Shown here one piece after another: positions 27,924-64,000 of a stretch of DNA of 64,000 bases; positions within the stretch are counted from its first letter, which is position 1; the number at the start of each line of letters is the position of its first letter. The notes under the pieces were generated by a model that worked only from the letters and a program-made list of their open reading frames with translations, ran no database searches and had not been told where the DNA came from. The DNA comes from Octopus sinensis (taxonomy: Eukaryota): contig NC_043001.1 of the NCBI RefSeq assembly GCF_006345805.1, positions 122,636,001-122,700,000 on the forward strand. The letters run 5' to 3'. Position numbers and translations under genes: made by a program.

Positions 27924-28526
27924 TCTTTTTTCTTTATAGCCCACAAGGACTAAACATAGAGGGGACAAACAAGGACATACATTGGTATTAAGTCGATTAC
28001 ATCGACCCCAGTGCGTAACTGGTACTTAATTTATCGACCCCGAAAGGATGAAAGGCAAAGTCGACCTCGGCGGAATTTGAACTCAGAACGTAACGGCAGA
28101 CGAAATACCTATTTCTTTACTACCCACAAGGGGCTAAACACAGAAGGGACAAACAAGGACAGACAAACGGATTAAGTCGATTATATCGACCCCAGTGCGT
28201 AACTGGTACTTATTTAATCTACACCGAAAGGATGAAAGGCAAAGTCGACCTCGGCGGAATTTGAACTCAGAACGTAGCGGCAGACGAAATACCTATTTCT
28301 TTATTACCCACAAGGGGCTAAGCATAGAGGGGACAAACAAGGATAGACATAGGTATTAAGTCGATTACATCGACCCCAGTGCGTAACTGGTACTTATTTA
28401 ATCGACCCCGAAAGGTTGAAAGGCAAAGTCGACCTCGGCGGAATTAGAACTCAGAACGTAACGGCAGACGAAATAGCGTTAAGCATTTCGTCCGGCGTGC
28501 TAACGTTTCTGCCAGCACGCCGCCTT
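27924..28526 (-). mobile_element. SINE-A trimer (3 tandem ~185-bp units, one head)
   Basis: Three consecutive units. Flanking direct repeat TTGYGGAGCAAATAATTT at 27906-27923 and 28525-28542. Confidence 0.9.
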
Positions 28527-42328: not shown

Positions 42329-42373
<45 letters not shown>

Positions 42374-42481
42374 TGTGTATAAAGTTAATCCAAACATGAA
42401 AACACAAAGAGAAAACACAGCAACGCGAGGACGTGGAACAAGTATAGTGTGTTTGGACGCTCAGGAAAGGAAAGAAGGAAG

Positions 42482-42516
42482 ATTTAACGTTTCGAGCGGA
42501 GCTCTTCGTCAGAAAC
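42482..42516 (-). ncRNA. Minimal type I hammerhead ribozyme motif (Penelope-like)
   Basis: GTTT-CTGACGA-A-GAGC-TCC-GCTC-GAAA-CG-TT-AAAT, with canonical core boxes, stem II and a short stem I. Confidence 0.6.
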
Positions 42517-42581
42517 ATAGAAAAAGGAAAGATCCAAGGGAGGGAAGACGGAGGAAAGAATCGCCAACGATACACACGCGG

Positions 42582-42643
<62 letters not shown>

Positions 42644-42705
42644 TCACCATGATAGATCGTTAGCCACTACACACATTTTTTTCTCTCCTTGATTTTTCTG
42701 TGTCC

Positions 42706-42741
42706 CTTTCTGTAGAAGAGCGTAGGCTCGAAACGTAAAAG
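42706..42741 (+). ncRNA. Hammerhead-like motif with variant core CTGTAGA (sister copies at 41432-41467 + and 48618-48653 -)
   Basis: CTTT-CTGTAGA-A-GAGC-GTAG-GCTC-GAAA-CG-TA-AAAG, inside a ~190-bp repeat next to microsatellites. Confidence 0.5.
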
Positions 42742-42830
42742 ACTTTTTCTATTCCTGAGCGTTATACAAATACATCTGTTTGTTTTGTACACCACCTGTC
42801 TTCGTCTTTTGTTTTTTTCGTAAACTCTCG

Positions 42831-45883: not shown

Positions 45884-46446
45884 CTTTTCTACTCTAGGCA
45901 CAAGACCCAAAATTTTGGGGGAGGGGCCACGACCCCAGTACGCAACTGGTACTTAATTTATCGACCCCGAAAGGATGAAATTCAAAGTCGACCTAGGCGA
46001 AATTTCAACTCAGAACGTATAGACAGTCAAAATACCTATTTCTTTACTGCCCACAAGGGGCTACACACAGAGGGGACAAACAAAGACAGACAAACGGATT
46101 AAGTCGACTATATCGATCCCAGTGCGTAACTGGTACTTATTTAATCGACCCCGAAAGGATGAAAGGTAAAGTTGATCTCGGCGGAATTTGAACTCAGAAC
46201 GTAGCGGCAGGCGAAAATACCTATTTCTTTACTACCCACAAGGGGCTAAACACAGAGAGGACAAACAAGGACAGACAAACGGATTAAGTCGATTACATCG
46301 ACCCTAGTGCGTAACTGGTACTTATTTATCGACTCCGAAAGGATGATAGGCAAAGTCGAACTCGGCAGAATTTGAACTCAGAACGTAACGGCAGACGAAA
46401 TACGGCTACGCATTTCGCCCGGTGTGCTAACGTTTCTGCCAGCTCG
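45884..46446 (-). mobile_element. SINE-A trimer with T2 terminal tail
   Basis: Three units. Imperfect flanking direct repeat GTCTCGACAAACAATA / GTCTTAACAAGCAATA. Confidence 0.85.
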
Positions 46447-54267: not shown

Positions 54268-54845
54268 TTCTTTTCTAGGTACAAGGCCCGAAATTTTAGG
54301 GCTGGGGGCCACTCGATTAGATCCACCCAGTACGCAAATGGTTCTTAATTTATGGACCCCGAAAGGATGAAAAGCAAAGTCGACCTCGGCGGAATTTGAA
54401 CTCAGAACGTAACGGCAGACGAAATACCTATTTCTTTACTACCCACAAGGGGCTAAACACAGAGAGGACAAACAAGGACAAGCAAACGGATTAAGCCGAT
54501 TATATCGACCCCAGTGCGTAACTGGTACTTATTTAATCGACCCCAAAAGGAAGAAAGGCAAAGTCGACCTCGGCGGGATTTGAACTCAGAACGTAGCGGC
54601 AGACGAAATACATATTTCTTTACTACCCACAAGGGGCTAAACACAGAGAGGACAAACAAGGACAGATAGACGGATTAAGTCGATTATATCGACCCCAGTG
54701 CGTAACTGGTACTTAATTTATCGACCCCGAAAGGATGAAAGGCAAAGTCGACCTCGGTGGAATTTGGACTCAGAACGTAACGGCAGACGGAATACAGCTT
54801 AGCATTTCGCCCGGCGTGCTAACGTTTCTGCCAGCTCGCCGCCTT
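54268..54845 (-). mobile_element. SINE-A trimer with T2 terminal tail
   Basis: Three units. Flanking repeat TATACAGTAAAGATAT (54253-54268) / TACACAGTATAGATAT (54846-54861). Confidence 0.88.
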
Positions 54846-60815: not shown

Positions 60816-61261
60816 TGTTTGTGATCGTAATTATTCATTGACATTTTCTATTTTTTTTCTTTTTAGTGTCTGCTGGGAAGTGGGATCGTTTTCAAAAATT
60901 CTGTAATTGTAGAGAAGAATGTGGTGTCAAGTAAGTGAAATGAATGCATTGAGTTTGTATTTTTTTTTTGAACGTTGGAGTCAAGTGATTGGCGGAGTGA
61001 ACAGTTCCGGGATGGTGCATATTTTGTACCGGAACGAGACACGTACGAAAGATAGTAGCTTGATATGATGGGAAGACTTAGTATTTTCACGAGAAAAAGA
61101 ATGGAGACGGAAAGGTAGAGAGCGAGAGAGAGACAGATAGATAGATAGATAGATAGAGGGAGGTTGAAAGAGGGAGATAGAGAAGAGTGTTAGAGAGACA
61201 AGCAATCAGACAGAGAATGAGAGAGAGGTAGAGAACGATCTCGCATCAATTATTATTATTG

Positions 61262-61369
61262 TTATTATTCAGGTCACTGCCTGGAATCGAACTCGGAATC
61301 TTGGGGTTAGTAGCGGGCTACTAACCCCAAGATTCCGAGTTCGATTCCAGGCAGTCACCTGAATAATAA
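61262..61369. repeat. Near-perfect 53-bp hairpin made of two head-to-head tRNA-like SINE heads
   Basis: Arms 61262-61314 / 61317-61369, 2-nt loop, one mismatch. Contains B box GAGTTCGATTCC. Confidence 0.92.
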
Positions 61370-61483
61370 TAACAGGTAATTGATAAATTATACAATCGGT
61401 TTGTCTGTGACTCTCTTTACCTATCAGCATATTTGTATGTGTGTATTATACACACGCCCCCTCCCTCATGTGTGTGTGTGTGT

Positions 61484-62893: not shown

Positions 62894-63167
62894 ATATACA
62901 TATATACATACATACATACATACATATATACACACACACAACACACATATATATATATATATGTATAGCGTAAAGGATTAGAGATTTGAATCCGGGCGGC
63001 TATCAGTCCATCGAAGCGTAACTCATTTTTGCCAGCTGAGTGGACTGGTGTAACGTGAAATGAAGTGTTTTGCTCAAGAACACAACGCGTCGCCCGGTCC
63101 AGGAATCGAAACCACAATCTTACGATCATGATGCTGATACCCTAACCACTATGCCACGTGCCTCCAT

Positions 63168-63199
<32 letters not shown>

Positions 63200-63804
63200 T
63201 AGCGAATATAAATGTTTATTAGTTAGTTGGGATTTTCGTCAACCACGCCATACATCTTATAGAGAGAAAAGGAGGGGAGAGAGAGTTAACTTACGAAGAG
63301 TAGGATAAGTGGAGAAGTGCACGTATTTGGCTTGATGGCAAGCAATGAGTAAAAGAACCCTGAACACAGTGAGAAAGAAAGAATCAAAAAGTAGTCGGTG
63401 TAGATAACAGACTAGTTATGGGCGGAGTTATATAAATAACAAATTTGTTTCATCTAACTTTATTTTAGAATAATAATTTTCTATTGGGAATTAATATTCA
63501 TTTCATAATTGTGTATAAGCTTCAAGAAATTTGATAAACATGGAATTTTAACCACAGAATAAAATACCGCCCTCCGGGAGGTTTTCAGCTACAATCTGAA
63601 TAATATTTCAGATTTCGTTCTCAGTTTTGTGTAAATTTTTATGTTACGTAACTTCTAATTTTCTCTTTGAAGGCTTCGTATGACTAATAGTATTCGCACT
63701 TTAGTAAATATTTCTTTCATTATTTGATTGCAGTCTTAATTTCTCTGCCGTTTAAACTAACTGAAAGGTACAGTTCTATATTTAAGAGATGAGGAATTAT
63801 GTAG

Positions 63805-64000
63805 ATTATTTACATTATTTACATTATTTACATTTGACGGATATTTGTCCTCATCTTGTTTGTTGTTAACACAACGTTTCGGCTGATATACCCTCCAGCC
63901 TTCATCAGGTGTCTTGGGGAAATTTCAAACCTGGGTTCTCATTACTAAGGTATTTTTCGATGTTATTATTATTATTGTTATTATTCAGGTCACTGCCTGG
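63805..64000 (-). mobile_element. Probable tRNA-headed, hammerhead-containing SINE (5' end beyond the window)
   Basis: Its window-edge end matches the tRNA-like sequence at 61251-61284. Then an (AAT)n linker, the HHR and a (GTAAATAAT)x3 tail. Confidence 0.6.
63868..63913 (-). ncRNA. Minimal type I hammerhead ribozyme
   Basis: GACAC-CTGATGA-A-GGCTG-(10 nt)-CAGCC-GAAA-CG-TT-GTGTT: canonical core, 5-bp stems I and II, palindromic minimal stem III. Confidence 0.75.

Follow-up and report, generated by a model that had tools for sequence, protein, structure and literature searches.

The window, i.e., the 64,000 nucleotides of Octopus sinensis DNA that were analysed, ends within a repeat which reads on the minus strand. 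In transcript order this consists of the 3' end of a tRNA-derived head (63986..64000), in which the B box is kept and the A box is lost, an (AAT)n linker of variable length (63962..63985) belonging to the 5' untranslated region of the full element, a second B-box-like motif, GGTTTGAAAT (63922..63931), a minimal type I hammerhead motif (63868..63913) with a predicted cut after 63873 (GUU), and three copies of GTAAATAAT (63805..63831). All of these parts had been listed in an earlier note on this DNA, and all were found on the minus strand. The first 58 codons of the element's ORF run through them on the same strand (63769..63942, AUG at 63942-63940; tblastn 84%, E 2.6e-17), with a premature TGA in the window copy at 63927-63925, i.e., codon 6. 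The hammerhead lies inside this ORF, and both the second 'B box' and the 9-nt repeat fall within its reading frame. The latter is a tandem duplication near the first of two 3'-end clusters, present in one to three copies among family members, and its interpretation as a SINE tail was rejected because it is in frame with the ORF. Nor does the element end at 63805, as had been supposed, since the sequence continues to 63769 as a 36-nt Penelope 'tail' (63769..63804, minus strand), which is ORF sequence past the pLTR.

The copy in the window forms one arm of a pair arranged head-to-head. Its head extends ~30 nt past the window end and joins an inverted second arm (G000:C5:122700029-122700408; L001:1720-2099) made up of a head, a long linker and a body. 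The tRNA head that had been expected beyond 64000 was thus present in part: it continues with its B box, the A box is missing because the head is broken off at about tRNA position +27/+31, and the inverted arm follows. On either side of the pair stands a direct repeat of 10 bp with a single mismatch, whose left copy lies at 63758..63767 on the plus strand (9/10 match to the right flank beyond the window), and the tail is carried by the window arm only. The identity to 61251-61284 that had been noticed is real, the first 36 nt matching 61284-61249 exactly. This is not a fuller head, as 61249-61374 is a head-only palindrome, a local duplicate of the inverted pair's centre, to which it is 98% identical over 126 nt. 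The palindrome-centre junction occurs at two places in the whole genome, the window pair and 61249-61374, and the 61.3-kb copy was rejected as independent support on account of its being a local duplicate of the window pair. It is a 126-nt hairpin core that lies 2.7 kb away from the pair it was copied from and has a further inverted repeat of 8 bp on its outside.

In the hammerhead motif, stems I and II have 5 bp each, the core reads CUGAUGA, a single A is bulged, and GAAACGUU is present without any helix III loop. 'Canonical', the term first applied to it, is therefore wrong, and the motif is of the minimal type. This type was defined by Cervera and De la Pena (PMC4209133), and the features given in the available part of that paper are all found here, namely the conserved core, the bulge after A9, G10.1-C11.1, the palindromic 15.2-16.2 and the lack of a helix III loop. 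Rfam returned no matches in the window at the gathering score, and no hammerhead or tRNA match in one further copy either, and free folding of the sequence did not give the ribozyme fold, both as expected for the minimal type. Exact matches to the 39-nt hammerhead core number 1,081 in the genome (2.72 Gb), versus 0 for the reversed control, which shows that it is not a product of chance. In the earlier view, the hammerhead as a real and Penelope-like one was supported, and the family is a large one. Within the family there was no covariation in stems I and II, the copies decaying evenly and only position 7 of the core being polymorphic (T 41 : A 18), while across five other families the stem sequences differ yet still pair, as judged by eye. 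The hammerhead of Poseidon from the anole overlaps the ORF start, cuts only with protein and is dispensable for insertion, according to the portion of PMC11167929 available. For the octopus hammerhead, cleavage would be expected only in a dimer or with the aid of protein, and the motif is probably dispensable for insertion as well.

Other repeats were observed close by and elsewhere in the genome. A second, unrelated minimal hammerhead (window 42330-42760, core at 42512, minus strand) has an imperfect plus-strand partner near 42700, head-to-head around a (TG)n tract, with similar sequence in L039 and L049; it is probably another Penelope-type pLTR pair, without a tRNA head. Just downstream of the hammerhead-pLTR copy, window 63040-63165 holds a different tRNA-headed SINE-like element on the minus strand, and a 184-bp unit with a B-box-like motif forms three short tandem arrays of 2.6-3 copies (window 27929-28475, 45930-46400 and 54313-54796). 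Other elements frequently break up the (AAT)n linker of the family, among them LINE-like ORFs and two 3' ends that recur (L089, L101, L102, L245, L247 and others), and these interrupting elements presumably resemble the Dong/R4 LINEs that target microsatellites.

The head, the (AAT)n linker, the hammerhead and the 9-nt repeat that had been taken for a tail together are the pLTR of an autonomous Penelope/Poseidon-type retrotransposon. This is demonstrated by longer loci with a pLTR-ORF-pLTR layout, in which the same repeat precedes a single RT-GIY-YIG ORF, and by full-length copies (L170, L181, L184) which begin at the head and run into the ORF. An ORF end with GIY-YIG-like residues was seen upstream of the head in L011, L095 and L103, and in a set of 30 loci searched for with that DNA, which includes the query itself and three near-copies of L118, the head stands directly after the GIY-YIG ORF end in 26, and head or body in 29. 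RNA reads span the ORF-pLTR junction (joint 5116-2432), which argues against such junctions being assembly artefacts. From 52 long copies a majority consensus was built that has a single frame, 835 aa in length. Its AUG lies within the pLTR, 34 nt upstream of the hammerhead core, so that the hammerhead is coding, as are the second 'B box' and the 9-nt repeat. A natural copy matched RVT_1 (E 3.2e-10), and the endonuclease was recognised by eye from GIY-YIG-like and CCHH-like residues C-terminal to the RT; the Pfam GIY-YIG model gave no score on L110, and its search of the genome found other Penelope families, with this repeat present at none of 30 loci. The hammerhead-pLTR family is old, with no intact full-length ORF among the copies fetched, the longest natural frame listed being 646 aa. 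Its size is very roughly 30,000 copies, with a wide margin (1,081 core matches corrected by 3/89, the rate of exact core matches among copies chosen without the 39-nt motif), and its share of the genome is estimated at ~0.3%.

The linker between RT and endonuclease is free of the Cys cluster found in L063, which represents another family of the same genome. The Penelope-like element at the latter locus (L063:1-6591; G000:C1:207473500-207483000) is complete and young. It has two ORFs, of 479 and 781 aa, repeats of 656 bp with 99% identity, a hammerhead variant and a Cys-rich linker, by which we take it to be Neptune-like. An extra Zn-finger in the linker marks Neptune/Nematis (Craig et al., bioRxiv 2021.04.23.441226), and a putative placement of the hammerhead-pLTR element in Penelope/Poseidon fits this criterion, as worded in the available part of the preprint.

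The manner of insertion is also that of Penelope. An inverted partner lies within 1.3 kb in 45 of the 111 loci that have a body; 44 of the 45 are head-to-head, and 43 of these 44 pairs carry the tail on exactly one arm. A flanking direct repeat (score at least 8) was detected in 30 of the 44 pairs, one of which sits in a simple repeat, versus 3 of 293 mismatched control pairings. Head-to-head pairs, a one-sided tail and a target duplication are the known Penelope pattern in those parts of the literature that were available, and head-to-tail arrays were absent from the mapped loci, apart from occasional partial tandems (L167). Furthermore, the 3' ends fall into two clusters ~30 nt apart, one at about +2 to +10 and the other at about +31 to +40, counted from the start of the tail. 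These match the two internal RT start sites of anole Poseidon in vitro, as reported in the accessible portion of PMC11167929.

What sets this pLTR apart is its head, which is colinear with the genome's tRNA genes at 40-51 identities (15 distinct genes from 30 loci), the best match, Arg-TCT, giving a tentative isotype. The A- and B-box-like motifs are kept in the family's head with the correct spacing and the cloverleaf is lost, so that at family level the tRNA-derived head with both motifs, as first proposed, is present. ARAGORN made no tRNA call at default settings and gave poor folds only when relaxed, and the boxes are no better conserved (0.94-0.96) than the rest of the head (0.94-0.95).

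The head also marks a fixed 5' start. Among 30 head-anchored copies, 23 begin between -7 and +2, the other seven run 41 to 700+ nt upstream, and none ends between. For a 23-nt motif taken at the head start there are 3,478 exact matches, and for a motif 31 nt upstream there are 718; when corrected by the respective match rates (19/71 and 22/60), these give ~13,000 versus ~2,000 copies, a step of about 6-fold. Three of the four copies with a complete 5' pLTR (L181, L170, L184) begin at the head start, and the fourth, L167, is a partial tandem. In the consensus a native imperfect hairpin spans -16 to +10. A perfect fold-back at -6 gave 497 strand matches, many loci being counted twice, whereas a fold-back at -16 that keeps the native upstream sequence gave none in the genome, and this difference favours an RNA ending at -6. 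The fold-back junctions thereby favour an RNA 5' end ~6 nt before tRNA +1.

Given the pile-up of 5' ends at the tRNA-like start, the fold-back at -6 and the absence of TTTT from the unit, we consider it somewhat more probable than otherwise that the RNA of the element is started by Pol III, with the short copies being a reverse-transcription by-product of its 5' end. The 2,650-nt unit has 0 TTTT runs, where 4.6 would be expected from a letter shuffle (P 0.006) and 2.9 from a codon shuffle of the ORF (P 0.025); under a first-order Markov model the expectation is 2.6 (P 0.076) and the absence is not significant. Phe content neither explains nor supports avoidance of T runs. Five other Penelope-type ORFs of the genome, all of one related group, have 9-13 T4 runs each, and more distant relatives have 3-19 in 19 of the 20 loci long enough to test and 0 in L252. 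A relative labelled Octopus sinensis (P0073) has 84% identity, and others have 36-72%, the closest of these being at 55-72%. The relatives compared as DNA were metagenome contigs with 29-52% protein identity, and they carry minimal hammerheads in pLTRs that are without A/B boxes and mostly T-rich. The exception (L252:3001-5370) is a distant Penelope relative with a 2-kb ORF without T4 and a T-rich pLTR, again with no A/B boxes. Pol III transcription would be unusual for a protein-coding mobile element, and the translation of an uncapped Pol III RNA would need explaining.

RNA reads are consistent with the copy numbers, as their depth tracks these (about 1,300-1,760 on the body and 5-35 on the RT region). 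A weak test on ~6% of the reads from three unstranded RNA runs, labelled with the same species, gave no pile-up of starts or ends at the head or at the hammerhead, which is partly deleted in the reference. Inverted-junction RNA reads were common (531, 409 and 384 loose ends at the head start). No circle-type joint occurred among the 15 joints listed of 192 in RNA reads from a library type unsuited to them; the joint that 'goes back 2685' was rejected as a circle, being the natural ORF-pLTR junction.

The serious rival is Pol II, because the inferred start has a TATA-like motif, TATAAG, at -28, which is Pol II promoter spacing. Under this explanation, which we regard as rather unlikely, the Penelope pLTR and the origin of the short copies are the same, but the RNA is started by the TATA-like box with which an upstream tandem copy ends, and the tRNA-like segment is a passenger in the 5' UTR, left by an old SINE insertion. 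Known Penelope pLTRs have TATA/Inr motifs and need partial tandems, as described in the available parts of PMC3846280 and PMC6765202, and a partial tandem does exist here (L167). A capped RNA would also account for translation, and the boxes are not specially conserved. On the other hand, it would then be a coincidence that the start falls within 6 nt of tRNA +1; both boxes persist at the correct spacing despite the lost cloverleaf, and the unit is without T4 while related pLTRs are T-rich. Some Pol III genes, too, make use of TATA-like boxes at -31/-24 (PMC10137851, in the part available).

It is improbable, in our view, that the pile-up at -6 is instead a reverse-transcription stop at the native imperfect hairpin, or an RNA processing site. 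The palindrome is there in the consensus, many 'solo' copies have a few fold-back bases, and the 5' palindromes of Adineta pLTRs have been read as self-priming (PMC3846280, available in part); against a stop, the more stable -16 fold-back is never seen (0 versus 497), though repair of a mismatched stem could hide it, and against processing, the head has by eye no good acceptor stem for RNase P.

The independent tRNA-headed SINE or retrozyme which the earlier note had proposed, with an acquired hammerhead, a lineage of its own and perhaps circles, is very improbable: short copies do exceed ORF-attached ones by about 6 to 1 and have SINE-like size and head, but every module of the unit belongs to the autonomous element, whose Penelope insertion signatures the copies bear, no diagnostic site separates 39 short from 48 attached copies (smallest p 0.004, one CpG among some 260 sites), the two classes are alike in age (divergence 6.3% versus 6.6%), the pairs are inverted and not head-to-tail, and the sole 'goes back' RNA joint is not a circle. 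By the definition in PMC3531059, the family has the short tRNA-derived head with A and B boxes of a SINE, which the window copy has not; it does not have the non-autonomy with a partner LINE, as it is the pLTR of an autonomous PLE with no separate lineage. Likewise, the head-to-tail units, each with a hammerhead, that define non-LTR retrozymes were not found. The short copies look like a SINE and may work like one.

With a Pol III start as the preferred reading, a mechanism can be proposed from the pLTR-ORF-pLTR layout, the single frame, the 5' pile-up, the two 3'-end clusters, the one-sided tail and the target duplications, all of which were observed. The RNA would begin at -6, pass through the pLTR and the ORF and enter the next pLTR, and the element's RT would start internally at two sites just past a pLTR, as for anole Poseidon in vitro. 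Starts past the 3' pLTR would yield long or truncated copies, and starts past the 5' pLTR would reach the RNA 5' end after about 240-280 nt and yield a SINE-like short copy. The inverted arm may arise when the cDNA end folds back on a 2-4-bp micro-palindrome, or when a second cDNA joins. For copies that have both boxes, renewed transcription and a spread as a Penelope-dependent SINE would be possible; in this scheme such a route is closed to the window copy, because its A box is lost. In its fullest form, an autonomous element would have captured a tRNA-derived promoter, be transcribed by Pol III over 2.7 kb, have purged its T-run terminators, have its uncapped RNA translated, and make with its own RT a Penelope-dependent SINE from the RNA 5' end. 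We put this forward tentatively, as a combination that is plausible but doubtful as a whole.

If true, it would represent a direct route of SINE birth from a Penelope element. If Pol III does drive the element, this would contradict the working rule of Pol II for autonomous retrotransposons, and how an uncapped 2.7-kb RNA gets translated would become a question. Whatever the polymerase, a fixed RNA start provides a ruler for the unresolved insertion mechanism of Penelope, as the two RT start sites and the point of fold-back can be read from thousands of pairs, on sense-strand RNA. There is also a warning for annotation in that some octopus 'tRNA SINEs' are Penelope end repeats. Inverted pairs would moreover give long double-stranded RNA in host transcripts, which might serve as a substrate for cephalopod A-to-I editing.

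Among known systems, the short copies (<700 bp) resemble tRNA-derived SINEs, including the octopus families, in their tRNA-like head and would be annotated as such. Compared with such SINEs as described, their partner is a PLE and not a LINE and they have no separate lineage. The tRNA-derived SINEs of octopus were reportedly treated by Ohshima and Okada in 1994, and the octopus SINE 'Twin' of Albertin 2015 is said to make up about 4% of the genome, far above the ~0.3% estimated for the hammerhead-pLTR family. Schistosomes have SINE-like hammerhead repeats named SM-alpha. Like the octopus family, these combine a Pol III-type promoter with a type I hammerhead, but in the available part of PMC6765202 they are non-coding head-to-tail tandems with the promoter 3' in the cleaved unit and no RT, whereas the octopus element is autonomous. 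Animal non-LTR retrozymes (bioRxiv 10.64898/2026.07.22.740005) are likewise short hammerhead repeats derived from PLE pLTRs. Their units are tandem, each with a hammerhead, whereas the octopus copies are solo or inverted, and the words 'tRNA', 'pol III' and 'octopus' had 0 matches in the portion of that text available.

A tRNA-headed pLTR was not found in the literature, including cephalopod repeat papers, as far as their text was available, and a repeat database or a supplement may already contain its consensus, named as a SINE or as a Penelope element. A near parallel for a promoter of this kind is TRIMp3 (Cassandra, Helenus, Ajax; PMC10886601, available in part), in which a small-RNA-derived Pol III promoter lies in the terminal repeat, possibly via SINE insertion. 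These are non-autonomous LTR elements, whose autonomous partners must, according to the author, use Pol II, whereas the octopus terminal repeat is that of a protein-coding element. In the remaining respects the element is like Poseidon of Anolis carolinensis (PMC11167929) and Pen2/Pen2a of Adineta vaga (PMC3846280), which in the accessible parts of both papers have one RT-GIY-YIG ORF (~840 aa) that begins within the pLTR, a minimal hammerhead over the ORF start, an inverted 5'-truncated arm, a 30-40-nt tail at one end, an 8-13-bp target duplication and two 3'-end sites. Unlike the Penelope/Poseidon pLTRs described there, with their TATA/Inr motifs, the octopus pLTR opens with a tRNA-derived A/B-box segment and (AAT)n, its 5' start is fixed and T runs are absent. 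That Penelope elements can carry minimal hammerheads was known before; what is new is the piling of 5' ends at a tRNA-like start, the fold-back at -6 and a unit without TTTT.
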